Positions 16,981 to 53,852 are shown, counted from the stretch's first letter. The stretch is 58,016 nt of DNA from a virus (IMGVR_UViG_3300034101_000486:1-58016); one strand, 5' to 3'. The notes: a model not told the origin generated them from the letters alone. Program-made: numbers and translations.

Positions 16981-17007
16981 TAACTTTATAACTCGGAGAA
17001 CTCAATC

Positions 17008-17307
17008 ATGAACATCAACAAAACAATCATCGCTCGCATCGAAGAGTACCGCGCTACTAACAAGAACCCTTGCAAGAGCTACGCCACTGAAGCCGCCGCT
17101 GAGAAGGCTACCGCTCAAATGGCGCAGGACGTCGCTAACTACTTCCACAAAGAGCGCGGTGTTGAGGCTCGCCCTGCTCAGTACATCGTCATCTATAACG
17201 AAGCATGGGGTCGCTGGGTCGGCGCTATCAACATGACCGAGCTGATTCAGCGCTCATCAAGCACTGGCGGCTACATCGGATACTGCACAGGCTTCTTCGT
17301 TTTCTAA
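17008..17307 (+). CDS. Early hypothetical protein (99 aa)
   Basis: SD GGAG, biased codon usage. Confidence 0.75.
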   Translation: MNINKTIIARIEEYRATNKNPCKSYATEAAAEKATAQMAQDVANYFHKERGVEARPAQYIVIYNEAWGRWVGAINMTELIQRSSSTGGYIGYCTGFFVF

Positions 17308-17335
17308 TTTCAACTCAATAACTCAATAACTCACC

Positions 17336-18166
17336 ATGACTTCAATCGACAACATGACTAACGATCTGAGCGCTGCTCCGGTCTATCGGGACACCTGCGC
17401 TAAGTGCGGCGGCGATGGTCGCTGGAAGGGCTTCGGCGACTGCACCGGTGACATGCGCTGCACCATGTGCAACGGCGTGGGCTACAAGGAGTTCAAGACC
17501 TCCTCTGACGAACGCGCCAAGGCTCGCGAAGCCGCCGCTCGCGCTAAGGCTAAGAAGGAAGCCGAGCAGCGTGCTCGCGCTGAGCAGTGGTTCGCCGCTC
17601 ACCCCGCAGAAGCCGCATGGATGCGCGAGTCTGCTGAGGGCTTTGAGTTCGCTCAGTCTATGATAGACGCTGTGTACGCGTATGGTCACTTGACCGAGCG
17701 TCAGATGGAAACTGTGCAGCGCCTCACTCAGAAGGCTTTAGAGCGTAAACAGCAGTGGGCTAAGGAACGTGCTGAGCGCGAAGCCGCAGCGCCAGAGGTT
17801 ACCTCTGAGCGTCTTGAGCAGTCATTCCGCAACGCCAAGGCTAAAGGTCTCAAGTGGCCACGCATCACCATGGGCGAAATGGTCATCAAACCTGCTGGTG
17901 AGAACAGCAAGAATCCTGGTGCGCTCTACGTGACTGAGTATGGCGCATACCTCGGCAAAGTGATGAATGGTAGATTCCTGAAGGTGCGCGAATGCGGCAC
18001 TGAGCAAGAGCAGAAGGTCGTTGGCTTGATCAACGATCCCGTGGGCGCAGCGGAAGCATACGGTCACCTGACCGGTCACTGCTGCATTTGCAACCGAGAG
18101 CTGACCAATGCTGAAAGCGTGTCTCGCGGTATCGGTCCAATCTGCGCCGATAAATTCGGCTGGTAA
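17336..18166 (+). CDS. Zn-finger protein with C-terminal DUF6011-like domain
   Basis: N-terminal CxxCxGxG repeats; C-terminal GHCCICNRELT..ES..RGIGPICA. Confidence 0.75.
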   Translation: MTSIDNMTNDLSAAPVYRDTCAKCGGDGRWKGFGDCTGDMRCTMCNGVGYKEFKTSSDERAKAREAAARAKAKKEAEQRARAEQWFAAHPAEAAWMRESAEGFEFAQSMIDAVYAYGHLTERQMETVQRLTQKALERKQQWAKERAEREAAAPEVTSERLEQSFRNAKAKGLKWPRITMGEMVIKPAGENSKNPGALYVTEYGAYLGKVMNGRFLKVRECGTEQEQKVVGLINDPVGAAEAYGHLTGHCCICNRELTNAESVSRGIGPICADKFGW

Positions 18167-18191
18167 TAACTTAATAACTAGGAGAACTGTA

Positions 18192-18368
18192 ATGGTATCG
18201 CGTATCACATTCCTGCTCATCCTGATCGCGCTCGGCGCGGTTGGGACGTTTGATTACGAGAACGCACTTGACGAAGAAGCCGCCTACTGCGACCGCCTGC
18301 GCAACGAAGTGCACACTGACTACAACCGCATCAAGAGCACCTGCGTGGCTCGTTACTGGGGCAAGTAA
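18192..18368 (+). CDS. Small protein with N-terminal membrane anchor (58 aa)
   Basis: ATG 18192 after AGGAG; MVSRITFLLILIALGAVG... Confidence 0.7.
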   Translation: MVSRITFLLILIALGAVGTFDYENALDEEAAYCDRLRNEVHTDYNRIKSTCVARYWGK

Positions 18369-18369
18369 C

Positions 18370-18486
18370 ATGAACACCCCTAACTGGCCATTCCCGCCCA
18401 TCACTGGTCCTGTGCCTTGGACTGCTAAGCAGATCCGCGAGTATGCGCGTAAGCAGATCGAGCAGACCGAAAAAGCCCCCTTTTAA
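18370..18486 (+). CDS. Small hypothetical protein (38 aa, MNTPNWPFPPITGPVPWT...)
   Basis: Starts right after previous stop. Confidence 0.55.
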   Translation: MNTPNWPFPPITGPVPWTAKQIREYARKQIEQTEKAPF

Positions 18487-18511
18487 TCTAGATTTTCCTT
18501 GGAGATTTGAA

Positions 18512-18940
18512 ATGAATACAGTAAACTTTTCCAGCATGACGACTCCTCAGTTGGTGTCGTTCTACAACCGCCATAGCACAACACCGGTCAAGCGCTTTAG
18601 TGACCGTAAAACCGCCGAGCGGCGTTGTGCTGAGGTCTTTGAGAGCTTGCTCTCCCCTGTACCTACTAGCAAAGTGATTAAACAAGTGGTTGATACCTCT
18701 ACCCGCCCCGTCATGAAGGACTCGCTCAAGCTCGACCGCACCATCATCTGCGTGAACACCGGCGACACGTGGAAGAACGCCTATCAGATGTGGCGCGACA
18801 ATCCTGACTGGATGACCAGCGCTCAGCAAGACCGCCTGACCGCACAGCTCTACGCCGCCGCTAAGGTCGGTGAGCAGAAGATTATTGAAATCAACGCCCG
18901 CAGCTTCATGCTCGTCAACATTAAAGGCGCAAAGAAATGA
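18512..18940 (+). CDS. Hypothetical protein (142 aa)
   Basis: ATG 18512 after GGAG; LVSFYN...VKRFSDRKTAERR N-terminal motif. Confidence 0.7.
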   Translation: MNTVNFSSMTTPQLVSFYNRHSTTPVKRFSDRKTAERRCAEVFESLLSPVPTSKVIKQVVDTSTRPVMKDSLKLDRTIICVNTGDTWKNAYQMWRDNPDWMTSAQQDRLTAQLYAAAKVGEQKIIEINARSFMLVNIKGAKK

Positions 18941-19161
18941 GCGACAACCAGCCGAAATTAGAAGGTGTCAAATGGTTCACGAGCAGTAAGGGTCTCGTGG
19001 GCATCGTGGCTGTCAGAATTGAGACCGGCGACATCAAGTTCTACATTGGTCCCGCTGATGGTTTTAATGAAGTGATCGACTCTAATCTGATCATGTCACA
19101 CGGAGCGCCCTTCCCTGAGGACGCAGGCTACGCATTGTTTATAAGAGAGGAATTGAAATGA
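18937..19161 (+). CDS. Hypothetical protein (74 aa)
   Basis: ATGA-coupled on both sides. Confidence 0.65.
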   Translation: MSDNQPKLEGVKWFTSSKGLVGIVAVRIETGDIKFYIGPADGFNEVIDSNLIMSHGAPFPEDAGYALFIREELK

Positions 19162-20114
19162 GTACGGTATTTCCTAACCTATCGCTCGACCGCAGCGTGG
19201 TCAAGTGGGAGCAACACCTCGGCACGCAGACGCCGTGGGAGAACCGCAAGGGGTTGTGGTTCAAACGCGAGGATTACTTCGCCCCGCTCGGCTATAGCGG
19301 TCCTAATGGCTCAAAGATGCGCCAGCTGATTTGGTACGTCAATCGCTTCCGCGAGGGCAAGACCCACATTGTCACCGGCGCGAGCATTCAGTCCCCGCAG
19401 CTGAGCATGAGCGCTATCGTCGGTGCGCATTACGGCTTACGCGCTCGGCAGATCGTCTATAGCAAGCCTGAGACTGTGTTGCGTCATGAGAACCCGCGCA
19501 TCGCTTACGGCTTTGATGCTGAGTTTGAGTTCGCCTCTGGTCCGTACAATCCTATCCTGCAGCGCAAGGTGGTTGACCTCACGCAGCCGACGTCTCTGGT
19601 CGTTGAGTACGGCATCACTGTGCCGCATGACCGCTACCCTGAGGAAGATGTGCGTAAGTTTCACGAGGTCGGCGCTCATCAGACAACTAACATTCCGCCT
19701 GAAGTCAAGCGCCTCATCGCTCCTGCTGGGTCTTGTAACTCGCTGACCAGCATCATGCTCGGTCTGAGCCGCGACTCGCACAACATTGATGAACTGTTCA
19801 CCATTGGTATCGGTCCAGACAAGCGCGGCTGGATGCGTCAGCGCCTTGCGTATATCGGCGTGGACATTGACAAGCTGCCGTTCAAGTGGAAACACTTTAG
19901 CCTGCATGACAGCGGCTACAGCAAGTATAGCGATCACTTCACCGGTGAGACTTTTGACGGCATCAGGTTCCACCCGACCTACGAGGCAAAGATGTGGCGT
20001 TGGTTGACACACCATAACCAGTTAGATTATGATGACCACACGGCGTTCTGGATCGTCGGCAGCGCCCCAGATACGAAGATTGTTGAACCTTTTTATACTA
20101 GGAAGCCCTCATGA
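19158..20114 (+). CDS. PLP-dependent enzyme (fold type II), putative decarboxylase acting on amino-acid-modified thymidine in DNA
   Basis: WFKREDY, NGSKMRQ (PLP lysine), PAGSCNS, HPTYEAK; context as in ViI/M6-type hypermodification clusters. Confidence 0.8.
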   Translation: MSTVFPNLSLDRSVVKWEQHLGTQTPWENRKGLWFKREDYFAPLGYSGPNGSKMRQLIWYVNRFREGKTHIVTGASIQSPQLSMSAIVGAHYGLRARQIVYSKPETVLRHENPRIAYGFDAEFEFASGPYNPILQRKVVDLTQPTSLVVEYGITVPHDRYPEEDVRKFHEVGAHQTTNIPPEVKRLIAPAGSCNSLTSIMLGLSRDSHNIDELFTIGIGPDKRGWMRQRLAYIGVDIDKLPFKWKHFSLHDSGYSKYSDHFTGETFDGIRFHPTYEAKMWRWLTHHNQLDYDDHTAFWIVGSAPDTKIVEPFYTRKPS

Positions 20115-21106
20115 AAGATTACCGCCTGCCGGAGAACCGCGCAGAGTACTTTACTGCGCTTTACAAGATGAACCTTGAGCACGGGGTCATGCCAGGACTC
20201 GTCTACTTGTACATGCCTGAAATCGCTCGCCGTTACGGGTGGAACGCTGAGCAGAAGCTCTGGTTCGCCTTCCTGAACGGCATGACGCAGAACCCAATCA
20301 CCTCGCTGCGGTTGTTTGATCAGCTACCCGTCACCCCTCCCGCTGGTGCCCAGCTGACACGCTTCACTGAATGGTTCAACGCCGAGTGGGATACGCTTCA
20401 GTTTGACACCGACCGCCGCTATCAGAAGCGCGACACCATTGAGGCTATCAAGACCTACGCTAAGTTGGTTGAGGAGTTCGGCTCTCAAGAGGCGATGCTG
20501 ACCGGTAAGACCTACGAGGAGTTGTGGGACCTCGTGCGTAACCGCTACTACAGCTTCGGTCGCCTGTCATCGTTCAGCTACCTCGAGTATGTCTACCTGA
20601 ACGGCTACGGCGCTGACTGTGATGACCTGCTGTTCAGTGACAAGTCGGGCAGCAAGTCACACCGCAACGGAATGCTGTTCCTGATTGGCAAAGACGAGTT
20701 GGTGTGGGACAAGCGCCTGCCTAACGGACAAGACGGCAACTACCCTAAATTCAATCTGATGTGCGGCTTCCTCGCTGCGGAGGCTGACAAGTTTGTTGAC
20801 ACCTTCAGAGCCGCGAACCCTGACGTGCCTAACACCGGTCGGTTCACTATGGAGTCAAACCTCTGCACGTTCAAGAATCATTTCTTCGGTCGTCGGTATC
20901 CAGGAGTCTACGCTGACATGGCGCAAGACCGTATTGAGTGGGCGGATGCGCGTGATCAGAGCGCCTATACCGAGGTGTTTAAAGATATGCGCTCTCAGCT
21001 GCTGCCGGAATGGTTGCGCCGCGAGTGTTCTGAGACGTCATTCAAGTTGGCGGGGGCGGTGTTCCCTGCGACCGGTTCACCCTACAGAGCGGAGCACTTT
21101 TTATGA
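20111..21106 (+). CDS. Amino acid:DNA transferase (aGPT-Pplase2/ADDT family)
   Basis: DYRLPENR start, KLWFAFLNG, HhH-like FGRLSSFSYLE, ESNLCTFK, RYPGVY. Confidence 0.75.
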   Translation: MKDYRLPENRAEYFTALYKMNLEHGVMPGLVYLYMPEIARRYGWNAEQKLWFAFLNGMTQNPITSLRLFDQLPVTPPAGAQLTRFTEWFNAEWDTLQFDTDRRYQKRDTIEAIKTYAKLVEEFGSQEAMLTGKTYEELWDLVRNRYYSFGRLSSFSYLEYVYLNGYGADCDDLLFSDKSGSKSHRNGMLFLIGKDELVWDKRLPNGQDGNYPKFNLMCGFLAAEADKFVDTFRAANPDVPNTGRFTMESNLCTFKNHFFGRRYPGVYADMAQDRIEWADARDQSAYTEVFKDMRSQLLPEWLRRECSETSFKLAGAVFPATGSPYRAEHFL

Positions 21107-21678
21107 ACGTCATACTACGTATTGCCGGCACGTTCGGCTCGGGCAAGACCACCGCCATGCGCGACTTCTTCAACTACCCGCACACAGTTTTGATGAGCGG
21201 TAAAAAGATCGCTGGCTACAAAGTTGACGCCAGCGCTGCCGGAATCACGCAGCCGATCTTTGTGGTTGGTAAGTATGACAACACTTGCGGCGGCACAGAC
21301 GCTATCAAGACACAGGCTGAGATTGCCGAGAAGATCCTGAAAGCACACCCCCATGGCCATGTGTTATACGAAGGCGCTTTGGTGTCTGCGAGCGGACTCG
21401 CCGGTCAGGTGACGCAAGCCATTCACCCCACCGGCTGCGACGTGTACGCATTCCTAGACACGCCGCAAGACCTCTGCGTTGAGCGCGTTAAGGGTCGTCG
21501 CCTCGCCGCTGGCAACGACAAAGAGTTCGACCCGAAGAACCTGATTGACAAGTTTGAGTCGGTCGTGAACTGTTATAAAAACCTGCGCAATGAAGGTTCG
21601 TATGACGTCCGTCGTATTGATCACACTGACCCGCACCCTCAGCTAGTAGAAATCATAAAGGAATATGAAAATGCGTGA
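21103..21678 (+). CDS. P-loop kinase, putative 5-hmdU DNA kinase
   Basis: IAGTFGSGKTT, VGKY..TCGGTD, LYEG, FLDTP..LC.ERV..RR; embedded in modification operon. Confidence 0.8.
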   Translation: MNVILRIAGTFGSGKTTAMRDFFNYPHTVLMSGKKIAGYKVDASAAGITQPIFVVGKYDNTCGGTDAIKTQAEIAEKILKAHPHGHVLYEGALVSASGLAGQVTQAIHPTGCDVYAFLDTPQDLCVERVKGRRLAAGNDKEFDPKNLIDKFESVVNCYKNLRNEGSYDVRRIDHTDPHPQLVEIIKEYENA

Positions 21679-22591
21679 TGAATGCCCGTACCCGATGCCG
21701 ACCGCCGAGACTGTGTGCTCGATGGAAGGTCTACTTTACTTCATCTGGGAGCGTGAGGCAATCCGTATCGCTCGCGAAAACGGTCACAGCGCTCCGTGGA
21801 CTAAAGACCCCGTGCTCGCTAAGTACAAGTTTACCAACATCCACCGCAGCGACGACCGCGTCTCGCAGTGGGTCATTGATAAGTTTATAGAACCCGCAGC
21901 GGCTAACGGAGATGAAGACCTGTGGTTCACGCTCTTGATCGCTCGCCTGATCAACTGGCCACCCACGCTACAGGCGCTCATCAACAAGGGTGTCATCCCC
22001 TGCAAACCTGAGAGCTTTGACGCTGACATGTTTGAGCACACGCTTGAGCGCCTGAAGAACGACGGCAAGAAGGTCTACTCCGGCGCGTACATGCTCTACC
22101 CGACTAAGATGGAGCCAGGAGGCAACAAGTCCAAGGCGGTGGCAAAGTACATCATCGGCAGCGCTATTGAGAACGCTGACAATATTCGCGCCGCGCTGTG
22201 GGTGAACGAGAACGGCATGTCTATTGAGAAGTTTGTCGCTGAGTTGAGCAAGTGCTTCGGCATCAGCACCTTCATAGCCGGTCAGGTGGCTGCTGATTTG
22301 ACCTACACCGGCATGGACGTTGAGGACTTGTTCACGTACGCGCCTATCGGTCCTGGCAGTTCACGCGGTCTGAATTACCTGCTGGGTAAAGCGCCGTTCG
22401 CCACGTGGAAGCAGAAAGAGTTCAACGCCGAACTGAGTAACATCTTCAGTCAGATCATTGAGCAGCTAGAGATTGTTGACATGACGCTGCACGATGTGCA
22501 GAACTGTATGTGTGAGTTCAGCAAATACTGCCGCGCCGTCCTCGGCGAAGGTAAACCTAAAACAACTTATCAACCAGAAACGGAGTTCTAA
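21665..22591 (+). CDS. aGPT-Pplase1 family protein (alpha-glutamyl/putrescinyl thymine pyrophosphorylase clade 1)
   Basis: ERE.IR...PWT.DPVL..YKFTN..R.DDRVS, GAY, GQV.ADL, GPGS.RGL, DVQNCMCEFSKY. Confidence 0.85.
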   Translation: MKMRDECPYPMPTAETVCSMEGLLYFIWEREAIRIARENGHSAPWTKDPVLAKYKFTNIHRSDDRVSQWVIDKFIEPAAANGDEDLWFTLLIARLINWPPTLQALINKGVIPCKPESFDADMFEHTLERLKNDGKKVYSGAYMLYPTKMEPGGNKSKAVAKYIIGSAIENADNIRAALWVNENGMSIEKFVAELSKCFGISTFIAGQVAADLTYTGMDVEDLFTYAPIGPGSSRGLNYLLGKAPFATWKQKEFNAELSNIFSQIIEQLEIVDMTLHDVQNCMCEFSKYCRAVLGEGKPKTTYQPETEF

Positions 22592-22592
22592 A

Positions 22593-23630
22593 ATGGAGTT
22601 AGTCGTACGCAACGTCAATCAGGCTTTCAGCGAGATATTCTGGAAGCTCAAAGTGCTCAACCTACAACCTGAGCAGACCCGAAATGGTCCCGCTATCGTG
22701 TACCCTGAGATGGTGACCACGGTCTATAAGTGCCCGTCAGAGCGCGTGCTGTTCCACAAAGGGCGCGACGCTAACCCGATCTTTCACCTGATGGAGTCGA
22801 TCTGGATGCTCGCCGGACGTAACGATGTTGCGTTCCTGCAACAGTTCAACCGGCGCATGGTGGAGTTCAGCGACGACGGCAAGACATTCAACGCCGCCTA
22901 CGGCTACCGCTGGCGTAAGCACTTCGGTCATGACCAGCTTGACGAAGTCATCAAGACCCTGCGCCGCGACCCTGCCAGCCGTCAAGCCGTGGTGCAGATC
23001 TGGGACGACGCTGATTTGAACAAGAAGACCAAGGACAAGGCGTGCAACATGCAGGTCATCTTTGATACACGCGGCGGTCGCCTGAACATGACCGTAATCA
23101 ACCGGTCTAACGATATCTGGTGGGGTGCGTACGGCGCGAACGCTGTGCACTTTAGTTTCCTGCAGGAGTTCGTTGCCGCTGCGATAGCGTACAGAATCGG
23201 CGTGTACCGTCAGGTGAGTAATAATTTCCACTTATACACAGAACTTTATAACGCGAAAGATTACTTAGTCATGCCGCCCGATGCGAGCAACTACGACCAT
23301 TACTCCAACGGCGCAGTGCGCCCACTGCCTATCATGTTGAACGGCGAGTACAAACTGTTCCTAGCTGAATGTGAGATGTTCTGTCACGACCCGTACAACG
23401 AGCGGATTCACTATGCTAACCCGTTCTTTGAGCACGTGGCTCGCCCTATGGCTATGATCAGTCGTGTGCGCAAGATTCACGCGGGTGACGGACGTAGCTA
23501 CGCCGCTAAGATCCGCGCCGAGGACTGGCGTCGCGCCGCGTTTGAGTGGATTGACCGCCGTGACCACGCACGCAAGATCAAAGAGGAAGATGACGAGATA
23601 AATGAGTTTAGAAAGGCTGAGAAAAAATAA
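22593..23630 (+). CDS. Thymidylate synthase homolog, putative dUMP hydroxymethylase
   Basis: TRNG, ANPIFHL.ES.W.L.GRND, AYG.RW, SRQAV, KDKACN (catalytic Cys), RSNDIWWGAYGAN with Asn suggesting dUMP rather than dCMP; start at ATG 22593. Confidence 0.85.
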   Translation: MELVVRNVNQAFSEIFWKLKVLNLQPEQTRNGPAIVYPEMVTTVYKCPSERVLFHKGRDANPIFHLMESIWMLAGRNDVAFLQQFNRRMVEFSDDGKTFNAAYGYRWRKHFGHDQLDEVIKTLRRDPASRQAVVQIWDDADLNKKTKDKACNMQVIFDTRGGRLNMTVINRSNDIWWGAYGANAVHFSFLQEFVAAAIAYRIGVYRQVSNNFHLYTELYNAKDYLVMPPDASNYDHYSNGAVRPLPIMLNGEYKLFLAECEMFCHDPYNERIHYANPFFEHVARPMAMISRVRKIHAGDGRSYAAKIRAEDWRRAAFEWIDRRDHARKIKEEDDEINEFRKAEKK

Positions 23631-23631
23631 C

Positions 23632-23670
23632 TTGCCTTGTGCGAGAAATGTGAGCTATAATTGCTCACAT
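23632..23670 (+). promoter_or_regulatory. Promoter TTGCCT-N18-TATAAT with -10 inside an 8-bp inverted repeat
   Basis: ATGTGAGC-TATAATT-GCTCACAT at 23648-23670. Confidence 0.7.
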
Positions 23671-23695
23671 AACTGCTAACTGGAGAACTTTTACT

Positions 23696-24184
23696 GTGAA
23701 ACATACTCTTGATTTTATTCTGGCTGGAAGCGAAGTAAAGCGCTATCACACCGTAACGACGCTGGTGTCCGAGACTGTCGGTCATCACTCGCACGGCGTG
23801 GCTATGCTGTGCTTGCTCTTTGACCCTATGGCGAGCCGTCAACTGCTGATGGCTGCGATGTTTCACGACCTCGCGGAACACCAAACCGGTGACATACCCT
23901 CGCCGGCAAAACGCGAGTTCGGCATCGGTGGCAAGGTTGATGAGTTAGAACAGCGCCTCATGTACGCTGCCGGAATCGTCATGCCCCAACTCTCCGCTGA
24001 AGACAAGCGCACCCTCAAGCTCGCCGACGTGGCTCAAGGGGCGCTGTTCTGTGCGCGGGAAATCTCACTCGGTAACAAACGCATGCGCCGCGTCTTTGAC
24101 CGCTACATCAGCTACGCGGAAGAGCTGATTCTGGTCGGTCGCGAGCGCGAAATCTTCAACATGATTAAGGACTACGCAGCATGA
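23696..24184 (+). CDS. HD-domain deoxynucleotide phosphohydrolase (YfbR-like)
   Basis: VKRY, ETVGHHS, FHDLAE..TGDIPSP.K, LKLAD. Confidence 0.85.
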   Translation: MKHTLDFILAGSEVKRYHTVTTLVSETVGHHSHGVAMLCLLFDPMASRQLLMAAMFHDLAEHQTGDIPSPAKREFGIGGKVDELEQRLMYAAGIVMPQLSAEDKRTLKLADVAQGALFCAREISLGNKRMRRVFDRYISYAEELILVGREREIFNMIKDYAA

Positions 24185-24450
24185 GCGCGAATGATAAACA
24201 GATTGGCGGTAGCCATTACAAGCACGGCGGCGAGGAACACTGGGACCGCGTCAATCGCTTAGGCTTGAACTACTTTCAAGGCGCGGCTACAAAGTACGTT
24301 GAGCGTTGCTACCTGAAAGGTAACACTGTTCAAGACTTGCAGAAAGCCGTTCACTTCCTTGAGAAGTTGATCGAGATCGAGCAGCGTAAGGCTGATGCGT
24401 CTTGCGGTGACGGCAGTGAGCCGACCCGTGGTTATGTCAATCAAGACTGA
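24181..24450 (+). CDS. DUF3310 (SaV-like / T7 gp1.7-related) protein, possible nucleotide kinase
   Basis: QIGGSHYK...G..TKYVER...KG..QDLQKA.HFLE. Confidence 0.8.
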   Translation: MSANDKQIGGSHYKHGGEEHWDRVNRLGLNYFQGAATKYVERCYLKGNTVQDLQKAVHFLEKLIEIEQRKADASCGDGSEPTRGYVNQD

Positions 24451-26293
24451 AATGGGCACTTGGGTGTTTGATACTGAAACTCTGCCCAACCGGACTTTGT
24501 TCTGCGCAAAGAACATTGAGACGGGCGAGTGGTTTGACCTGTGGCGTCATGATGACGACGCACCGGCTCGGCTCACGCGCTTTGTGCAGCAGTCGGACAG
24601 TACCTTCATCGGGTTCAACAGCAAGTCATTTGACAACGCGGTGGTGGCGGCGTTCTGCCTCGGCAGGACTGAGATTGAGATCAAGCGTATTGCCGATGAC
24701 ATCATCACGAACCGCCTGTCGCCGTGGAATGCTATGCGCAAGCACAATTTGCGTGACATCATTCTTGACGACATTGACTTGATTGAGGTCGCCCCGTCGT
24801 TCGTAGGTCTGAAAGCCTACGGCGCTCGCATGCATATGCCCAAGCTGCAAGACATGCCGATCGTTCACGACGAGATGATCACCCCTGATCAAGAGCCGAT
24901 GCTGCTCGAGTACTGCCACAACGACGTTGACACCACCGCCGAGCTGTTGAATCAGCTTGAGGGTGAGTTGTTGCTGCGTGTTGAGATGAGCCGCCGTTAC
25001 GGAGCTGACATGCGTAGCAAGTCGGACTCTCAAATGGCTGAGCAGGCGTACATCACCAGCATGGGTCTCAAGCGTCAAGACAATGAGATCCCGAAGACTG
25101 TCAGATATACGCCTCCGGCATTCCTGAAGTTTATGGATGCCGAGCTACAGGCTCTGCTTGATCGCGTCTCTGAGCACGTGTTCAATATGAATCAGGTGAC
25201 TGGGCACGTTCAACTGCCGGACTTCCTCGGCTTGAAAACAATCAAGTTTGGTTCAGGTGAGTACCAGCTCGGCGTGGGCGGCATTCATAGCGTGCATGAC
25301 AAGCAGGTGTGTCACCTCGCCGGTGATGATCACATGTGCGACATTGACGCGGCTTCGTTCTACCCGAGTATTATTCTTGAGTGCGGGTTTGTACCCGCCG
25401 CGCTCGGTAAGCGCTTCGTCGAGGAGTACCGCAAGATTTACGAGCGCCGCCTTGAGGCTAAGCGCACGGGCGATAAGATCACCGACGCCACGCTGAAGAT
25501 CTCACTGAACGGCACGTTCGGCAAGCTCGCCAGTCGTTACTCAGTGTTGTACTCGCCAGACTTGATGTTGGCGGTGACGCTGACCGGACAGTTCACCCTG
25601 CTCATGTTGATTGAGTGGCTTGAGCGAGCAGGGGCGGTCACCCTGTCAGCTAACACTGACGGTATTGCGATTCGTTACACTAAGGAGCAGAAAGAGCTAG
25701 TTGAAAAGGTGGTCAACAAATTTAGCGAGATTTCAGGCTTTGTGTTTGAGTACACGCCGTACCGCGTCCTCGCTATGAAAGACGTCAACAATTACATCGC
25801 GATCAAACCCGATCGCAAACTCAAAGTGAAAGGCATCTATGCGCCGCTCTCTCTTAAGAAAAACCCAACGGCTCAGGTATCGTCAGATGCTGTGGGGGCG
25901 TGGTTGGCAGGCGGTACTCCGTTTGAAGAGACGATTAAGTCTGCTCCGTTCACGCACTTTATCAGTGCCCGAAATGTTACCGGCGGCGGTCAGCAGAACG
26001 GCGTTTACCTTGGCAAAGTCGTACGGTGGTATCAATCAACGGACGCTAGCAATGAACCTATCAAGTACGCTACGAACGGTAACAAGGTTCCAAAGACCGA
26101 AGGCGCTAAGGCGTGCATGACGATGCTTGACAAAATAACTCATCCGGTTGATCTTGACTATGACTGGTATAACAAAGAGGCGATAAAAATCGCCATCGCG
26201 GTTGGCTGCGCACAGTATCTCACTCCGGAGCAACTTGCTCTTGTGGCACCGCCACCTAAAAAATCTAGGAAAGTTAAAAATGCAACACGGTAA
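24434..26293 (+). CDS. Family B DNA polymerase with 3'-5' exonuclease
   Basis: Exo FDTET, GFNS..FD, YC.ND; Pol DAASFYPS, K.SLNGTFGK, NTDG; start at ATG 24434 or 24452. Confidence 0.9.
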   Translation: MSIKTEMGTWVFDTETLPNRTLFCAKNIETGEWFDLWRHDDDAPARLTRFVQQSDSTFIGFNSKSFDNAVVAAFCLGRTEIEIKRIADDIITNRLSPWNAMRKHNLRDIILDDIDLIEVAPSFVGLKAYGARMHMPKLQDMPIVHDEMITPDQEPMLLEYCHNDVDTTAELLNQLEGELLLRVEMSRRYGADMRSKSDSQMAEQAYITSMGLKRQDNEIPKTVRYTPPAFLKFMDAELQALLDRVSEHVFNMNQVTGHVQLPDFLGLKTIKFGSGEYQLGVGGIHSVHDKQVCHLAGDDHMCDIDAASFYPSIILECGFVPAALGKRFVEEYRKIYERRLEAKRTGDKITDATLKISLNGTFGKLASRYSVLYSPDLMLAVTLTGQFTLLMLIEWLERAGAVTLSANTDGIAIRYTKEQKELVEKVVNKFSEISGFVFEYTPYRVLAMKDVNNYIAIKPDRKLKVKGIYAPLSLKKNPTAQVSSDAVGAWLAGGTPFEETIKSAPFTHFISARNVTGGGQQNGVYLGKVVRWYQSTDASNEPIKYATNGNKVPKTEGAKACMTMLDKITHPVDLDYDWYNKEAIKIAIAVGCAQYLTPEQLALVAPPPKKSRKVKNATR

Positions 26294-26639
26294 TCAACGC
26301 ACAGTCTACGTAGTACAAGTGGACAACAAGAAAGACCTATCCGACGCGAAGCAATATGGCTCGCTGCGGGCGGTGTTCGGCAACCCACGCAAGCCTTACG
26401 ATACCGTAGGCATGCTGGCTAAGGCGCGTCGCGTCTTGAAAGATTGGGAATCAGGTGACTACCTGCTGATGATTGGCGACCCCACGCTCTGCGCGGTGTG
26501 TATGTCAGTCGCTAGCGAAAACAACGACATCATCAACATCTTGAGCTGGGATCGGGACTCGTTCTCGTACATGCCTCAGCGATGGGACTTCGGTCAGATG
26601 GGTCTGGATTATGACGATTTTGAAACAGCGGAAGACTAA
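26280..26639 (+). CDS. Conserved hypothetical protein (119 aa)
   Basis: ATG 26280; VYVVQ...DYLLMIGDP...LSWDR. Confidence 0.7.
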   Translation: MQHGNQRTVYVVQVDNKKDLSDAKQYGSLRAVFGNPRKPYDTVGMLAKARRVLKDWESGDYLLMIGDPTLCAVCMSVASENNDIINILSWDRDSFSYMPQRWDFGQMGLDYDDFETAED

Positions 26640-26667
26640 CCGCTCAAAACCACGAAAGGAGAACAAA

Positions 26668-27408
26668 ATGTCAAACTGGCAAGATGCCTTGAGAAAAGGT
26701 AAACAAGATGTACCGCCCCGTATTTGTATCTACGGGGGTCACGGTATTGGTAAGTCCACCTTGGCTAGCAAGTTCCCAGCGCCGATTTTTATCAGCACTG
26801 AGGACGGGCTAGACTCGTTGGATGTAACGAGCTTCCCGCGTGCAACCAAGGTTGAGGACGTGGTCGACAACATCAAGACCCTCATCAAAGAGGAGCATGA
26901 GTTCAAGACTGTCGTCATCGACTCGGTTGATTGGCTCATTGAGCCGCTCATCGTGAGCAACGTGGAGTCCTCGCATGATGCTAAAGACCTTGCCTATGGC
27001 AAAGGTCAGATGCTCGTCGCTGAGGAGTTCCGCGAGATCCTGCAGGGGTTGGACGTGCTGCGCGTAAAGCGTCGTATGAACATCGTGCTGATCGCTCACG
27101 CTGCCGTGGTGAAGTTTGAAGACCCCCGCACCGAGCCTTATGACCGCTACCAGCCGAAGCTGCCTAACCGCTGCAACGCGCTGCTGCAGGAGTGGGCTGA
27201 CGTGCTTGCGTTTGCCGCGTTCAAGGTGATCATTCGCAAGTCTGACTCCGGTTTCAATAACCAGAAGACCCGTGGTGTAACGACAGGTGAGCGCTTGCTT
27301 CACTTTGTTGAGAACCCCGCGTTTGCTGCAAAGAACCGCTACACCTGTCCCGAAGAGGTCGAGATGACAATCGAAAACCTCGAGAAACTTATCCCCATCG
27401 CTAAATAA
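26668..27408 (+). CDS. Sak4-like ssDNA-annealing ATPase (AAA_24)
   Basis: IYGGHGIGKST, TEDG, VIDSVDW, IAH, AKNR; followed by SSB. Confidence 0.85.
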   Translation: MSNWQDALRKGKQDVPPRICIYGGHGIGKSTLASKFPAPIFISTEDGLDSLDVTSFPRATKVEDVVDNIKTLIKEEHEFKTVVIDSVDWLIEPLIVSNVESSHDAKDLAYGKGQMLVAEEFREILQGLDVLRVKRRMNIVLIAHAAVVKFEDPRTEPYDRYQPKLPNRCNALLQEWADVLAFAAFKVIIRKSDSGFNNQKTRGVTTGERLLHFVENPAFAAKNRYTCPEEVEMTIENLEKLIPIAK

Positions 27409-40368: not shown

Positions 40369-41567
40369 CAGAACGTCCCGCCGTTAATGTTACCCGCCTG
40401 AGCAACGCCCAGCACACCCCACGCGGCAGCTTGATCAACCGCCGTAAACAGACTTGTACCCACAGAAGTGCCGCCCAAGTTGATCAACGCAGATCCGGCG
40501 CTCGTAGCACCCGTACCACCCTGATTCACCGCGATAGGGTAAGAAACACCAGCCGTGTCAGCACGTAAGACGTCAGTGCCGTCGCTGTACAAAATAGCAC
40601 GTTCGCCGCTAGCGAGGATAACTCCTAAGCCCGCCGGTGTTTTTACGGTGAAGGTGTAAGCGCCGCTGGTCTGGTTGTCAACCCAGTACTGCTGTACTGT
40701 GGCGGGCACAATGATGTTACGATTACCGGTCAGCGTGCCCGTAAAGCGATACGCCACGCGGTTGAGTTCAGTACCGGTCAGCGTGTAGTTACCTGTACCG
40801 CCGACGGCAATCACGGTATAGTCAAATGCGAACGTCGCAGATTGACCGAAACCGATCGTGTAAAAGTTGGTACCGTCGGAGGCGATGATTGAAGACTCTC
40901 CTGGCTGAAAGCTCAAGAAAGATGTACCGTCAATCAGCGTAGATCCAGGAGCATCAGCTGAAATCGCACCGCTACCCGAGTTACGCAAGTAGAGGAACCA
41001 GTTATTGCCGACGACTGTGGGGTCGGGCAGCGTCAATGTGCCACCCGCGCCGGTCCAGTTGAACATCTTAGCGCGGTCGGACTGGGTACTCGTGTAGTTG
41101 CTGTTGAACGATGTAATCGGCACTGACTGAGAAAGCAACGCGCCCACGGCTACGATACCTGTACCGGCTAACGCGGAGGCGTTGGCTTCAGAGACCGTAG
41201 CGCCGAACTGCAACGATTCCCAAGTACCCGCCACGGTCGAGTTGTTAGTCAGGTAGACCTGCCAGACCGTTCCTGAGGCAATCGAGACGATCTGAACTCC
41301 GGTGGCGTCCTTGACTACAAAAGTCTGAGCGCCTTGGTTATTGAACAGAACCGTATTACCTGTGCCAGTCTTAGAGGCATCAGGCATCGTGATTGACAAA
41401 CCAGCAGAGGACGCCGTGACGTCCATGATGCGGGTGGCGAGGTTGTTGCTAGCGGAGGTTTCTTCTGGCCAGCTCAGAACAATGTTTGTTGAGAGCGCAA
41501 CTGAACTGTAGCTGATCTCGCTGGGGTAGATATTAGCGCCACCAAAGACGTCGGTATAAATAGGCAT
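40368..41567 (-). CDS. Tail structural protein
   Basis: Beta-strand-rich Ser/Thr/Gly composition, TLTLP repeats, ends GGTF. Confidence 0.65.
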   Translation of the reverse strand: MPIYTDVFGGANIYPSEISYSSVALSTNIVLSWPEETSASNNLATRIMDVTASSAGLSITMPDASKTGTGNTVLFNNQGAQTFVVKDATGVQIVSIASGTVWQVYLTNNSTVAGTWESLQFGATVSEANASALAGTGIVAVGALLSQSVPITSFNSNYTSTQSDRAKMFNWTGAGGTLTLPDPTVVGNNWFLYLRNSGSGAISADAPGSTLIDGTSFLSFQPGESSIIASDGTNFYTIGFGQSATFAFDYTVIAVGGTGNYTLTGTELNRVAYRFTGTLTGNRNIIVPATVQQYWVDNQTSGAYTFTVKTPAGLGVILASGERAILYSDGTDVLRADTAGVSYPIAVNQGGTGATSAGSALINLGGTSVGTSLFTAVDQAAAWGVLGVAQAGNINGGTF

Positions 41568-42199
41568 TACGCTTCACTCCTGTTTGCAGTACGATCCATG
41601 ATACGCTTCAGGTCTTCCCCGTTGAGCGCCTGAGCAGCGCGGTCGTACATCATTTGCCACGTCTGAATACGCTCATCACTTTTGAGGAACGGGGTGGCTT
41701 CGAGCAGCGTTGCGTAAAGCAGCACATCCGGTGCGTATTCAGTGAGCCAGTTGGTTTGAAATTCTTCACCCAGAAAACGCGGCTGCTCGTAGTAAAGTAC
41801 TTCAAGCGTCTGTGCGGTGGCTGGGGTCGGGGTGATAATCCAGTGCTGATAGTCATAGTCAGCATAGTAAGCAGGGCTGCCGGTTTGGGCTTCGTTTGGC
41901 CAGTAGTTGCGAATATATTCGTAAGAACGGGCAAAGATCGGTGTCCCGTTGACAGTCATACTGACGGTATCGCGCCAGCGGTCAGGCTTCAGGTAGACGG
42001 CAACCCCCGCCGAGAGCGGCGTGGTGACGGCACGGATAAAGCCCTCAACCTTGAGTTCACGGGCGATACGGCGCTCACCTAATGTAATTAGGCGAGGTAG
42101 CTGGTCGTAAACGATCTGGTCGCTCTCTTGCGTGAAACCACGTTCAAGGTAGCGACGCACGTCCACCAGCAAACTGTCGTACGTCATGCTATAGCTCAT
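41567..42199 (-). CDS. Head-tail adaptor / tail tubular protein A
   Basis: MTYDSL..D...YLER, G.P.YYA, PTP, PDVLLYATLLEA. Confidence 0.7.
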   Translation of the reverse strand: MSYSMTYDSLLVDVRRYLERGFTQESDQIVYDQLPRLITLGERRIARELKVEGFIRAVTTPLSAGVAVYLKPDRWRDTVSMTVNGTPIFARSYEYIRNYWPNEAQTGSPAYYADYDYQHWIITPTPATAQTLEVLYYEQPRFLGEEFQTNWLTEYAPDVLLYATLLEATPFLKSDERIQTWQMMYDRAAQALNGEDLKRIMDRTANRSEA

Positions 42200-44322: not shown

Positions 44323-47300
44323 TTATCCGTTAGGGAATGCTGCCGTGGGCGGTGTGAAAGTCGTTGTGTATCTGGCGTAGCCTTTAGTGACTCGCAGGTC
44401 ATCTATGTAGCCGTTTAAGCCATTACTTCCTGGCGCGTTTCCATCACCTCCGATAGTCGGTCTACTAGCAGCACCTAAATACGTGTTTGAATCCGTATAG
44501 GTGGAACCTGATTGCGTTCCGTTTATAAACAGTTTGGTACTGGTCCCTGAACGACAAAGAGCGACATGATGCCAACTTCCTGAAGCAGTTGCTACTGTCC
44601 CAGTAATTCTGATTGCGCCATTTAAATAAAAGTTAATATACCCCGCTGATGAATCAAAATAAATTGTTGGGTAGAACCCGTTTACACCACTAGGTCTAGT
44701 ATCATAAATTAAATACGTTGTAGCTGTGCTATTAAAGTAAATCCAAAATTCAATCGTATAAGCACCAGTGCCAAAAGCGTATAAATCAGAAGTTCCAGCA
44801 TTAGGAACAAGATAATCTCCTGACCCATCAAAGTACATCGATGCCGCGCCAAACTTCTTAACGCTTGTAGAAATCTGTGCATTGCCCACAGTTTCTAAGT
44901 CGTTCATCATGGCGTTGTCAAAGATGGCGGCGTTGGTTGCGTTCAACAATAGCGATGTGCCTGTGACTGCTGTTAATGGTGCTGTTGGTGGTGTAAATGC
45001 GCCCGAGTACACAACAGTGTTGGTAATTCGTACATCAGCAAGATAGCCGTTCACCAAGTTAACTGTGGGAGTTCTGCCGCCAACATACAAAGTTCCTGAA
45101 ATGCTGACAGATGGCGCGGTTGCCGCAGTTGCTAACTGTGCGCCATTTAAATAAATTGTCCAATTACTTCCGCTTTTTACAAAAGCCAAATGATGCCATG
45201 CCTTAATTGGAAATGTAGAGCTTGTTGTGTTACCACTAACATTTTGTCCACTTCCGTCAACATACCATTTGATTGGCTGATTTGCTTGACCGCCTGCTAA
45301 TTGGCAAAACCATTGGCTAGAACCACTTGAATAATATGAAACAGGGTCTTGGTCGCTTGAATATGCGTTTAAATAAACCCAAAACTCCACAGTTGCATTT
45401 GTTTGGTTGAACAAATTAAAAGAAGTGTTGGTAGGCGCACTCAAATAATCACCACTACCATCAAAGTACGCAGAGCCGCCATTCACAGCAGGGTTGTACA
45501 CAACCAATGGTACAAATGGACTGAAGCTTTGGACGCTTGGTGTGCCTGCAACGGTAATAGCGGCGGCATTTGAGCTGTTGTCCAAAAAACGATTTGACTG
45601 ACAAACAAGAACTTGAGTGCCTGAAACTGCTGTAATTGGGGTTATGCTTGGTGTAAACGCAGTAGTATATAAAGCCGTTCCAATTACAAGTCGGCAGTTA
45701 CTAATGTAACCTGAAAAATACCCAGAATCAGATGCGTTAATCCGACCAACGCTCATCACGCCAGTTGAATTATTGAACGCGCCACTTACTGTTGATGATG
45801 TTGCGTCTAATGCGCCATTAACAAAGTACCGAACAGTTGTGCCCGATCTAGTAACAGCAATATGGTTCCAAGTGTTAAGCGTACAAGACAACGATGTTCC
45901 AACAACAGCGGCGTTAGTAGCGCCAATACCATAGACAAGCCCAACTTTTCCAGTGCTATTTACATAGAACTGAAATGACTGATTTGACGCAGTGCCACCG
46001 GGCCATTGAGCCAAAACAATGTTTCCGTTTGTTCCAGCAAAAGATGTTGGGTAGATCCAAGCCTCAACAGTAAAATCCCCGCTAATTACATAGTTAGCGT
46101 TGTCAGGCATGGTCAAATAGTCGCTTGAACCATTGAAGTAGTTTGACCAATCCGCCCCATAAGGCGTGAATGTGCCTTGAGTTGTATTGCCAGCACGAGT
46201 GATGACGAAGTTGTTCTGACTGCTGTCTTTGAAGCCGTTGTTGTTGCCGCCACCGTTGTATTGAGTGGTAAGCAGGGATGTGCCGCTGACTGCGGTTAGA
46301 GGAGCTGTAGGTGGCGTGAATGCAGATGTGTAGACTGCTGTGCCTTTGACCATCCTAGCGTCTGCAACATATCCTGTAATCACGGCTGAAGCGTTGTTGT
46401 AGCCAGACACTTTTACAGTTGCCCCTGATGGGTTATTTACAGTAACACCAGTAACTGATGCAGTCGTTCCCCCCGCTACTCCGTTTACATAGATAGTAAG
46501 CGTATTCCCATTACGAACACCTGCAACATGATTCCAAGCATTTGCAATTAAAGAAGTTGAGGATGCGGTATATTGAGTTGTGCTTTGAAAAACTGAAACT
46601 TGAATACTAGTTGCGCTATTTTGATAAATTTCCCAAGCAAAATTGGCGTTTGTGCTTTGACCATTTGAATAATTAAAAACTGAGCCGCTAGTGCCACTTA
46701 GATACACCCATGCTTCAACAGTAAAATTACCAGAGCCGACATCAAACGCAGAATTGTTTGCGACTGTTAATTGATCCCCACTACCATCAAGATACCCAGA
46801 GCCGTATGTCGCCACACTGCTTGGCAGGGTGAATGGTTGGGCGGGGGATACTGCTGTATCACCATTCTTTGTGATGGTGAAAGCGTTTGTGCTGTTATCA
46901 ATGAAGCGGTTGGACTGGCAAGTCAAAAGGCTTGTACCCGAGATTGCCGTCAGGGGTGTAGTGCTTGGAGTGAAAGAGCCTGTATAAACTGCTGTACCTT
47001 TTACTGCACGCAAATTTGATATAAAGCCTTGAAATGGATTACTTGAATTGTCAAAACCATCTATACCAGATGAAGGTCTATTTGCACCACAAGTGTAGTT
47101 AGAGCCTGTATCTGTGTAAGTTGTATTTACTTGTGTGCCGTTCAAATAAATTTTTATTTCAGAACTTTGACGAACAACCGCAACATGATTCCATGTGTTT
47201 AATGTTACTGAACCGCCAGTTGTTACTGAAGTACTGTATTTATAAAAAGAAATTGCGTTGCTTGCATTTATGTAAATACGAATAGCGTCTGTACTTGCAC

Positions 47301-47784
47301 CAGACAATGCCAAAGTGTCAAATATCGTTGCTAGTGTTGAGTTTGTCTTATAAACCCAACATTCAACAGTCCAATCACCAGTGCCCATTGCATTAGCGGT
47401 ATTTGCGCTAACAGCATTTATGTAATCACCAGAGCCATCAAAGTAATTGCTGTAATACCCAGCCTGATACGGATTAAAGTTATTAGACCGCGCATCACCG
47501 TTGATGGTGACGTTGAAGTTGTTGGTTGATGCGTCAGCGTTGAACGGGGTCACAACAGCAGAAGCTCCCGCACCCACGCCGGTGGTCGGCAATGGCTGCG
47601 CAGAGCCGTCTCCGTGCAGCAGCATCGTGACGTAGTTGAACTGCGGGTCACGGGGGAATGGCCACGTGTTTGTGTTCTGCGCAGCGGCTTGCTGGCTCAG
47701 TGTCCAGACCCCAGGAGCGCTTATGCTGTTAGGAACAACCGGAGTTTTGGAGATCACCCCTCCAGGATACTGGTTAGACATCAA
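44323..47784 (-). CDS. Receptor-binding tail fibre with five LamG/ConA-like domains
   Basis: Five repeats of Y[FL][DN]GS[GS]D...TVE.W.Y...W.H.A.VR...GYI...R. Confidence 0.85.
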   Translation of the reverse strand: MMSNQYPGGVISKTPVVPNSISAPGVWTLSQQAAAQNTNTWPFPRDPQFNYVTMLLHGDGSAQPLPTTGVGAGASAVVTPFNADASTNNFNVTINGDARSNNFNPYQAGYYSNYFDGSGDYINAVSANTANAMGTGDWTVECWVYKTNSTLATIFDTLALSGASTDAIRIYINASNAISFYKYSTSVTTGGSVTLNTWNHVAVVRQSSEIKIYLNGTQVNTTYTDTGSNYTCGANRPSSGIDGFDNSSNPFQGFISNLRAVKGTAVYTGSFTPSTTPLTAISGTSLLTCQSNRFIDNSTNAFTITKNGDTAVSPAQPFTLPSSVATYGSGYLDGSGDQLTVANNSAFDVGSGNFTVEAWVYLSGTSGSVFNYSNGQSTNANFAWEIYQNSATSIQVSVFQSTTQYTASSTSLIANAWNHVAGVRNGNTLTIYVNGVAGGTTASVTGVTVNNPSGATVKVSGYNNASAVITGYVADARMVKGTAVYTSAFTPPTAPLTAVSGTSLLTTQYNGGGNNNGFKDSSQNNFVITRAGNTTQGTFTPYGADWSNYFNGSSDYLTMPDNANYVISGDFTVEAWIYPTSFAGTNGNIVLAQWPGGTASNQSFQFYVNSTGKVGLVYGIGATNAAVVGTSLSCTLNTWNHIAVTRSGTTVRYFVNGALDATSSTVSGAFNNSTGVMSVGRINASDSGYFSGYISNCRLVIGTALYTTAFTPSITPITAVSGTQVLVCQSNRFLDNSSNAAAITVAGTPSVQSFSPFVPLVVYNPAVNGGSAYFDGSGDYLSAPTNTSFNLFNQTNATVEFWVYLNAYSSDQDPVSYYSSGSSQWFCQLAGGQANQPIKWYVDGSGQNVSGNTTSSTFPIKAWHHLAFVKSGSNWTIYLNGAQLATAATAPSVSISGTLYVGGRTPTVNLVNGYLADVRITNTVVYSGAFTPPTAPLTAVTGTSLLLNATNAAIFDNAMMNDLETVGNAQISTSVKKFGAASMYFDGSGDYLVPNAGTSDLYAFGTGAYTIEFWIYFNSTATTYLIYDTRPSGVNGFYPTIYFDSSAGYINFYLNGAIRITGTVATASGSWHHVALCRSGTSTKLFINGTQSGSTYTDSNTYLGAASRPTIGGDGNAPGSNGLNGYIDDLRVTKGYARYTTTFTPPTAAFPNG

Positions 47785-49126: not shown

Positions 49127-49133
49127 TTTTTCC

Positions 49134-53549: not shown

Positions 53550-53852
53550 TTAAAACTCCAAATAGCCATCACCATCTTCGGTAATGAAAAACTCATCACC
53601 GGCTTCTTGAATAACGCCAGCAGGATGAGTGTTGATCGGGGTGTCCGGACGATTGAACGGAAGTACGATTTGGTCAGGACGACGCGGCGCAAGGCGGTAC
53701 GGGTCGTACTCATCGCGGTCTTCCTCGCAGACCATCAGACCAGGATAGTTCGGGTCAGGAGACAACTCAGAAAGCAACATCTTACGCGAGCAACGACCGC
53801 ATATGGCGATACCATACGTCGGTTGTCCGCTCGGGTCAAGAAAGACGCTCAT
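53550..53852 (-). CDS. Zn-binding hypothetical protein
   Basis: AICGRCS...GLMVC..D.D..DP. Confidence 0.7.
   Translation of the reverse strand: MSVFLDPSGQPTYGIAICGRCSRKMLLSELSPDPNYPGLMVCEEDRDEYDPYRLAPRRPDQIVLPFNRPDTPINTHPAGVIQEAGDEFFITEDGDGYLEF

Follow-up and report, generated by a model that had tools for sequence, protein, structure and literature searches.

Gene content of the operon

The 58,016-bp IMG/VR virus record IMGVR_UViG_3300034101_000486, derived from an uncultured phage and analysed here over its whole length (hereafter the window), carries between positions 19158 and 24184 of its plus strand six genes resembling those with which certain phages hypermodify the thymines of their DNA (Table 1). 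Their starts and stops overlap or abut, with ATGA start/stop overlaps at 19158, 20111 and 21103 and a 14-nt overlap at 21665, and because codon overlaps of this kind point to a single operon, the six genes are regarded as translationally coupled. They encode a pyridoxal phosphate (PLP) enzyme, two members of the aGPT-Pplase group (clades 2 and 1) separated by a single P-loop kinase, a thymidylate-synthase-like hydroxymethylase and an HD-domain hydrolase; downstream of the last lie genes for a DUF3310 protein, a family-B DNA polymerase and an AAA_24 ATPase. An earlier interpretation made from the DNA alone (the sequence-only reading) had described the clade-2 and clade-1 genes as flanking one kinase in a near-complete genome; both statements hold, as all four genes, the PLP gene included, lie on the plus strand where it had placed them, and the CheckV completeness of this record, the entire one, is 100.

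Table 1. Genes of the operon and the downstream polymerase gene in the window
Product	Position	Strand	Evidence
Fold-type-II PLP enzyme, ViI gp226 homologue, 318 aa	19158..20114	+	blastp, phrog_3650
Clade-2 aGPT-Pplase, amino-acid:DNA transferase, 331 aa	20111..21106	+	PF18724
P-loop 5-hydroxymethyldeoxyuridine (5-hmdU) DNA kinase, 191 aa	21103..21678	+	PF18748 below cut-off, blastp
Clade-1 aGPT-Pplase (Pfam HMUDK_hel), 308 aa, putative function	21665..22591	+	PF18723
Thymidylate-synthase-like deoxyuridine monophosphate (dUMP) hydroxymethylase	22593..23630 (ORF opens 22494)	+	PF00303, phrog_5131
HD-domain (YfbR-like) deoxynucleotide phosphohydrolase	23696..24184	+	PF12917, PF13023
Family-B DNA polymerase (context)	24395..26293	+	phrog_1252

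The genes surrounding the transferase and PLP pair recall phages M6 and PaMx11, in which the same gene order also ends in the polymerase. The kinase translation shows a Walker A motif (GTFGSGKT); its PF18748 score of 25.8 bits falls just below the 27-bit cut-off, and blastp matches it to PaMx11 gp49 (E 1e-18) and M6 gp54 (E 2e-8). The hydroxymethylase matches PF00303 (E 1.3e-22) and phrog_5131 (E 6e-105) and is 45% identical to M6 gp58 and 44% to PaMx11 gp51 by blastp. This alignment begins at residue 38 of the long open reading frame (ORF), and the in-frame ATG found 2 nt past the clade-1 stop codon is the likely start, judging from the sequence. The HD protein (PF12917, E 1.3e-10; also PF13023), 36% identical to M6 gp59 by blastp, probably shapes the nucleotide pool. 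The polymerase matches phrog_1252 (E 8e-160) but is at most 40% identical to any polymerase of a cultured phage, and megablast of positions 17000-27000 against cultured phages returned no match; by these comparisons the window represents a lineage without a cultured relative.

The transferase and its PLP partner

The PLP enzyme, which has no match in Pfam, is ViI-like, i.e. a homologue of the PLP decarboxylase gp226 of phage ViI, to which it is 32% identical over residues 3-317 (blastp, E 5e-58). An identity of 32% is likewise reached with gp41 of phage Montesquieu, the match to M6 gp52 is marginal only (E 0.009), and the protein belongs with phrog_3650 (E 8.6e-74). Alignment places K53 opposite ViI K92 and M6 K36, the residues named as forming the Schiff base (PMC8989533, section 19), around which a weak match to D-cysteine desulfhydrase is also seen. 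The operon thus contains a fold-type-II PLP enzyme homologous to gp226 with its Schiff-base lysine in place, as a pathway of the ViI type would. Matches to it occur in 348 phage records, all below 60% identity; most of these phages infect Salmonella, Vibrio, Klebsiella, Escherichia or Dickeya, and the records among the matches listed are about 130-163 kb long.

The clade-2 protein is a clear member of the ADDT family (PF18724, formerly aGPT-Pplase2), reaching 67.1 bits (E 2.6e-18) where the cut-off is 26.2, and 65.2 bits when the genome was searched. Its catalytic E248 and C252, the ExxxC pair, are invariant in 11 diverse rows and in a 32-row alignment and align with E243 and C247 of PaMx11; this Glu and Cys are essential in M6 gp51, ViI gp247 and PaMx11 gp46 (PMC8989533, section 17). 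The AlphaFold2 (AF2) model, with a mean predicted local distance difference test score (pLDDT) of 92.5, predicts a PUGT-like fold containing a helix-hairpin-helix (HhH): the top matches in the Protein Data Bank (PDB) are PaMx11 gp46/PUGT (8z2n and 8z2m), at probability 1.00 and TM 0.50-0.57, and the next reaches at most 0.12. A phmmer search of PDB sequences with the clade-2 and clade-1 proteins gave no match at E up to 1.

Which of the characterised transferases does it resemble most? By blastp it is 27% identical to ViI gp247 (E 4e-28), 37% to Montesquieu gp42 and 36% to gp02 of Mycobacterium phage Fortunato, with no match to M6 gp51 or PaMx11 gp46. The sequence-only reading had suggested a phylogeny as a check, and a maximum-likelihood tree of 32 clade-2 transferases has now been built, in which the deepest branch, with support of 100/99, parts phiW-14, M6 and PaMx11 from the other 29 rows, comprising the window group, actinophage-type loci, Montesquieu and ViI gp247; the transferase of the window therefore groups with gp247 and not with the N-linking enzymes. 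It also has the motifs FGRLS and, in an insert, SxSxRNG in common with gp247, and at the FGRLS site M6 and PaMx11 have the glycine-binding FGPWxxFK (PMC11472151, section 14). The equivalents of PaMx11 Trp146 and Lys150, to which a glycine-binding role is ascribed (PMC11472151, section 14), are Leu and Ser within FGRLSSFS, and the Lys that follows the catalytic Cys (PMC13458397, section 38) is replaced by T253, so that the residues marking a glycine transferase of the M6/PaMx11 type are missing.

An irregularity was noted in the Fortunato record (L005/L096, bases 431-2826), where a Tet_JBP-like frame (431-1756) overlaps the clade-2 frame (about 1207-2823), and where gp02 as deposited (1258-2826) opens with an Arg-rich stretch, seemingly in the wrong frame.

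The enzymes that process the glycine adduct in the other two phages are missing too. None of the 70 ORFs of the window matches a radical-SAM, flavin or acetyltransferase family in a Pfam scan, and a six-frame search for CxxxCxxC found five motifs, none in a gene-sized ORF: all five are in stop-to-stop frames of 67-114 aa spanned by larger ORFs that run on the opposite strand or in a different frame. Across 80 related loci (see below), M6 gp53, PaMx11 gp47 and PaMx11 gp48 have no tblastn match. There is accordingly no candidate in the window for the radical-SAM glycinyl-thymine isomerase of the M6-type pathway, which runs from N-alpha-glycinyl-T to 5-NedU, nor, by the Pfam scan, for the flavin-dependent lyase and acetyltransferase of the PaMx11-type pathway, which leads to 5-acetylaminomethyldeoxyuridine (5-AcNmdU). 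The sequence-only reading had likewise seen none of these three kinds of gene and had called the M6 route unlikely, a view that the missing radical-SAM gene and the replaced glycine-binding residues of the transferase both favour.

Distribution among uncultured relatives

A scan of IMG/VR recovered 88 related loci, of which 80 were retained; many are on contigs of 53-62 kb and several on short contigs of 5-8 kb, and their transferases are 55-87% identical. A second scan, with a diverse clade-2 alignment (A1) as the query, gave 185 loci, mostly the same close relatives. The order PLP enzyme, clade 2, kinase, clade 1, hydroxymethylase, HD, DUF3310, polymerase recurs among the 80 loci, in which blastp at the level of ORFs detects the transferase in 79, the kinase in 75, clade 1 in 74 and the hydroxymethylase in 72; the cluster is thus common to at least 79 uncultured relatives.

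The PLP gene is not always present. Among the 79 loci with a transferase it is present in 56 and absent from 12 despite at least 1.5 kb of upstream sequence, and in the remaining 11 the contig ends. A search of whole records showed that the complete genomes behind L057 and L078 (about 57-61 kb) have no PLP gene anywhere but keep the transferase, kinase, clade 1 and hydroxymethylase; in a third genome it has been relocated by about 7 kb. Hardly any variation is seen in the active-site motifs of the transferase, whether the PLP gene accompanies it or not, and phages lacking this gene may stop at the amino-acid adduct, leaving it undecarboxylated. Where the PLP gene is present it adjoins the transferase gene in 39 of the 56 loci, the other 17 having extra ORFs between the two. 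Among the inserted genes are one for a protein of 248-256 aa without a Pfam match, in nine loci (L068-L073 and L080-L082), and ones for phosphoesterase-like DHH/DHHA1 proteins in two (L047, 4029-4850; L066, 6054-6992), all of which might add tailoring steps or act on the nucleotide pool. In 9 of 12 actinophage-type loci the PLP gene follows a transferase of the same clade. On one IMG/VR contig of 101,830 bp (L060 and L092) the cluster occurs twice, with the PLP gene in only one of the copies, and the contig looks like two related genomes merged in assembly.

Variation of another kind affects the kinase. Downstream of the transferase, relatives L016-L095 have one of two kinase alleles that are about 48% identical: 49 loci have a kinase at least 60% identical to that of the window, and in 26 the identity is below 52%. 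The alleles have been exchanged among genomes that are otherwise 80-95% identical, and might differ in site specificity. Together, relatives with and without the PLP gene and relatives with one or the other kinase allele provide a natural comparison set for decarboxylation and for the choice of sites.

A proposed route to the modified base

From gene identities, catalytic residues, homology, synteny and conservation, all of them observed, we infer a donor, a product and an order of steps. The hydroxymethylase, aided by the HD hydrolase, would supply 5-hydroxymethyldeoxyuridine triphosphate (5-hmdUTP), which the phage polymerase would incorporate in place of T, and the P-loop kinase would phosphorylate 5-hmdU in DNA to 5-phosphomethyldeoxyuridine (5-PmdU). 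On the clade-2 transferase, Cys252 would attack C6, the phosphate would be expelled, and an amino acid would be added through its side chain with the alpha-amine left free; with serine, the most likely donor, the link would go through the hydroxyl and the adduct would be O-serinyl-T, a nucleoside of 345 u. The PLP enzyme would then decarboxylate the adduct, which in the case of serine would yield 5-(2-aminoethoxy)methyl-deoxyuridine (5-NeOmdU), the base of ViI, at 301 u.

The clue to a side-chain linkage comes from the two known PLP enzymes. M6 gp52 is inactive on the glycine adduct, which is linked through N-alpha, until the radical-SAM enzyme exposes a primary amine, and ViI gp226 acts directly on O-serinyl-T, whose alpha-amine is free, with no isomerase step (PMC8989533, section 19). 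A transferase and PLP pair without an isomerase therefore suggests that the amino acid is linked through its side chain, and serine is the one donor established by experiment on this side of the tree, which makes O-serinyl-T and then 5-NeOmdU the likeliest products. Part of the thymines of the phage would thus most likely carry an aminoethoxymethyl group derived from serine. The sequence-only reading had listed a ViI-like product among several options; with a PLP enzyme that resembles the ViI protein and matches M6 gp52 only marginally, that option now leads. For the whole proposal, i.e. a post-replicative thymidine-hypermodification operon of the 5-hmdU/5-PmdU kind that follows a ViI-type route to 5-NeOmdU, we estimate a probability of about 0.5.

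Why not higher? The exact base is placed at this level because of the low identity to gp247, the residue next to the catalytic Cys and published evidence that donors switch (PMC13458397), and these are also the grounds on which a different donor can be argued for. By the same logic, another amino acid with a linkable side chain (Thr, homoserine, Cys, or a diamino acid such as ornithine, lysine or diaminobutyrate) would be attached and, after decarboxylation, would give an undescribed base. The transferase is only 27% identical to gp247, the sole characterised enzyme on its side of the tree, and gp247 itself forms a long branch (length 4.95) whose place within that side the tree leaves unresolved. 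Next to the catalytic Cys stands T253, which does not vary in the 32-row alignment; ViI has W288 there. This is one of two donor-setting positions (PMC13458397, section 38), two pocket substitutions have switched the donor, and donors differ even between enzymes that are about 35% identical and belong to the same similarity cluster (PMC13458397, sections 33 and 38). The family also includes many similarity clusters that await characterisation (PMC13458397, section 33). The second donor-selecting position, equivalent to Y257 of YuA and D238 of 15599, had no reliable mapping in the alignment. Two further points weigh against the proposed route: no serine-bound structure exists for comparison, and decarboxylation must be optional, given the complete relatives that lack the PLP gene. 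Set against a different donor are the clear homology of the PLP partner to the O-serinyl-T decarboxylase, the several motifs common to the transferase and ViI gp247, and the experimental precedent, which on this side of the tree exists for serine alone. We therefore consider an unfamiliar donor unlikely, and retain serine and 5-NeOmdU as the preferred assignment.

The clade-1 protein

The product of the fourth gene belongs to PF18723 (HMUDK_hel, formerly aGPT-Pplase1; E 3.4e-44, 151.8 bits) and is 30% identical to M6 gp55 by blastp. A motif C283-E284-x-x-K287-Y288 shows no variation among 7 diverse or 26 close homologues, and the top structural matches of the AF2 model (pLDDT 89.3) in VIA-align are PUGT (PaMx11 gp46; Z 10.9, 227 residues aligned) and the HhH DNA glycosylases of the Ogg/Mag type (Z about 10), values that for helical proteins are by themselves merely suggestive. 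Profile, motif and HhH glycosylase-like fold thus agree on membership in clade 1. By inspection, C-E-x-x-K-Y resembles the ExxxCxxK of clade 2, and a comparison of the clade-1 (A3) and clade-2 (A1) alignments in hhalign gave a probability of 0.1 and no usable alignment. In phage PhiJL001 (L167, 12757-13086 in record coordinates), positions 131-227 of the PF18724 profile weakly match the inside of the clade-1 gene gp19 (E 7.8e-4), the sole direct sequence link between the two clades in this analysis; it is on inspection and this one weak ADDT match that the kinship of the motifs is suggested.

A clade-1 protein is found in each characterised phage of this kind that was checked, namely M6 (gp55), PaMx11 (gp50), ViI, phiW-14, Montesquieu, SP10 (fused to the kinase) and the dapT phage SH-Ab 15599; a locus scan with PaMx11 gp50 as the query returned PaMx11 alone. 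The pairing of clade 1 with clade 2 is the canonical set of the pathway, and the protein of the window would accordingly be a regular companion of the hydroxymethylase route rather than the source of a second hypermodified base. What, then, could it contribute?

One tentative answer is that clade 1 forms thymine in phages whose DNA is replicated with 5-hmdU instead of T. According to Lee et al. 2018 (PMC5889632), 5-hmdU has two fates, the hypermodified base and thymidine, and how the latter forms is left unexplained there; no later assignment of an enzyme to this step was found in the literature, and none is made in the dapT paper (PMC13458397, sections 41, 42 and 48). Acting with the kinase at sites that are not hypermodified, the clade-1 protein might attack C6 with its invariant Cys, after which the phosphate would be expelled and a hydride delivered, turning 5-PmdU into T. 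This candidacy is based on the unexplained step and on four comparative observations. First, among genomes checked individually, which do not amount to a wide unbiased census, a thymidylate-synthase homologue accompanies clade 1 in 12 of 13 (the window, M6, PaMx11, ViI, phiW-14, SP10, Montesquieu, the L104 record, GreenIvy, RHph_I72, PhiJL001 and YungSlug). Second, neither clade 1 nor a thymidylate-synthase homologue was found in any of five clade-2 records of the ParB/TET type (Fortunato and G006-G009, of which Fortunato and G006, the 81.9-kb record behind L103, are complete and three partial); these records appear to make 5-hydroxymethyluracil (5-hmU) by ParB or TET/JBP enzymes, and most of the G006-G009 loci also have the PLP gene. 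Third, clade 2 goes undetected in five phages that have clade 1; of these, GreenIvy and PhiJL001 carry glycosyltransferases instead. Absences judged by the PF18724 profile alone are weak, as that genome search missed the clade-2 gene of Montesquieu (blastp E 9e-53); a search of the five with the diverse A1 profile also found none, though without a positive control. Fourth, across the related loci the identity of clade 1 to that of the window follows the identity of the hydroxymethylase (Spearman 0.84) and not that of the kinase (0.09), figures that are descriptive only, since the loci are related; within the lineage of the window clade 1 is up to 91% identical while the kinase alternates between its two alleles. 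The exception among the 13 is Nodularia phage vB_NspS-kac65v162 (L168), which has a clade-1 homologue without a detectable thymidylate-synthase homologue, kinase or clade 2. For the conversion of 5-hmdU to T, the comparative pattern thus offers a candidate enzyme that can be tested, and if thymine formation were its task, the idea of two transferases making two products in different sequence contexts would be right in form, the second product being thymine.

It is also possible, but again doubtful, that clade 1 has no chemistry of its own and instead assists the kinase, targeting or stimulating it by binding DNA or flipping bases, in line with its Pfam name, 'kinase helical domain'. Its HhH glycosylase-like fold would suit such a task, its gene overlaps the kinase gene by 14 nt, and in SP10 gp186 the two are fused (as given in Table 3 of PMC5889632). 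However, the SP10 kinase domain and M6 gp54 are each active alone (PMC8989533, section 15), the ParB/TET-type records checked, Fortunato and four of the five IMG/VR records (G006-G009), do without clade 1, the kinase alleles are swapped among relatives whose clade 1 stays up to 91% identical, with the correlations given above, and the invariant Cys-Glu suggests catalysis. A kinase was detected in only 2 of the 12 actinophage-type loci (L099 and L101), neither of whose contigs was searched whole for clade 1. Prediction of a complex between kinase and clade 1 scored 0.00, which carries no weight either way.

Very improbable, finally, is the possibility raised by the sequence-only reading that clade 1 is a second group transferase and that two hypermodified thymines coexist in different sequence contexts: the invariant Cys-Glu pair, the PUGT-like fold, the glutamyl-T made by SP10, in which clade 1 alone is detectable, and the presence of clade 1 without detectable clade 2 in GreenIvy, PhiJL001, YungSlug and the Nodularia phage speak for it, but M6, PaMx11, ViI and phiW-14 carry both clades and are each described, in the papers covered, as having one hypermodified base, M6 gp55 is dispensable, kinase and clade 2 having sufficed for the glycine adduct in vitro (PMC8989533, section 16), and the Acinetobacter dapT phage, which also has a clade-1 homologue, contains only dapT and the four canonical nucleosides (PMC13458397, section 41). 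The association of clade 1 with putrescinyl- and glutamyl-T made in the sequence-only reading was imprecise, since the putrescine transferase of phiW-14 is the clade-2 protein gp109 (PMC8989533, Table 1) and SP10 has only a clade-1 protein, fused to its kinase. Of the earlier interpretation as a whole, then, the preference for a ViI-like over an M6-like route survives, and the deduction of two bases from two clades does not.

Other features of the genome

No tRNA genes were found in the window. On its minus strand, a 137-aa ORF at 1585-1998 matches Cpn10/GroES (E 7.8e-9) and overlaps a 172-aa ORF of the opposite strand, either of which could be the true gene. A 1153-aa protein encoded at 44323-47784 (minus strand) has five Laminin_G_3 (concanavalin-like) domains (E 2e-92) and is probably a receptor-binding fibre. 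Two adjoining Gly_rich_2 proteins and two SU10-adaptor-like proteins, encoded at 48191-49982, 41567-42199 and 53849-54829 (all minus strand), hint at a podovirus-like tail.

Comparison with known systems

Judged by its closest homologues, the operon is a mosaic, with a backbone (kinase, clade 1, hydroxymethylase and HD) nearest to M6 and PaMx11 and a transferase and PLP pair of the ViI kind. ViI employs the kinases gp67 and gp243, the serine:DNA transferase gp247, the PLP decarboxylase gp226 and the clade-1 protein gp160, and the window resembles it in combining a hydroxymethylase, a kinase, a clade-2 transferase, a fold-II PLP enzyme (32% identical; the transferase 27%) and a clade-1 protein without a radical-SAM enzyme. 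In contrast, ViI is a 157-kb myovirus (Ackermannviridae) with scattered genes and two kinases (PMC8989533, Table 1), whereas the window has a tight operon with one kinase in 58 kb; its gp226 and gp247 exceed their counterparts by about 100 and 80 residues, and the donor-selecting residue is W288 instead of T253. In the literature covered, 10.64898/2026.05.19.726188 included, reports of 5-NeOmdU are limited to ViI-like (Ackermannviridae) phages, and a search for the base found no measurement outside that family.

With M6 and PaMx11 (Mesyanzhinovviridae) the window shares the order kinase, clade 1, hydroxymethylase, HD, small ORFs and polymerase, and the first four of these have their best matches there, at 30-45% identity. 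Unlike the window, however, M6 has a radical-SAM isomerase and a PLP enzyme (gp52) of just marginal similarity, PaMx11 has a flavin lyase and an acetyltransferase, and the transferases of both are glycine-specific, N-linking and without a blastp match to that of the window. Glutamicibacter phage Montesquieu and the IMG/VR locus L104 combine the same five functions without a radical-SAM enzyme, with a transferase 37% identical to that of the window, and in them the transferase and PLP genes adjoin, as do those for clade 1 and the hydroxymethylase; they differ in being actinobacterial phages of another genome type, and offer no chemical anchor, their base being uncharacterised.

Contigs similar to the window may already appear in Figure 2 of PMC8989533, and the clade may already have a place in the sequence similarity network (SSN) and pocket figures of PMC13458397. 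Seen against these systems, the cluster puts a ViI-type transferase and PLP pair into an M6-like operon within a widespread uncultured lineage of about 58 kb, and is thereby a tangible example of the shuffling of modules that Lee et al. 2021 proposed.

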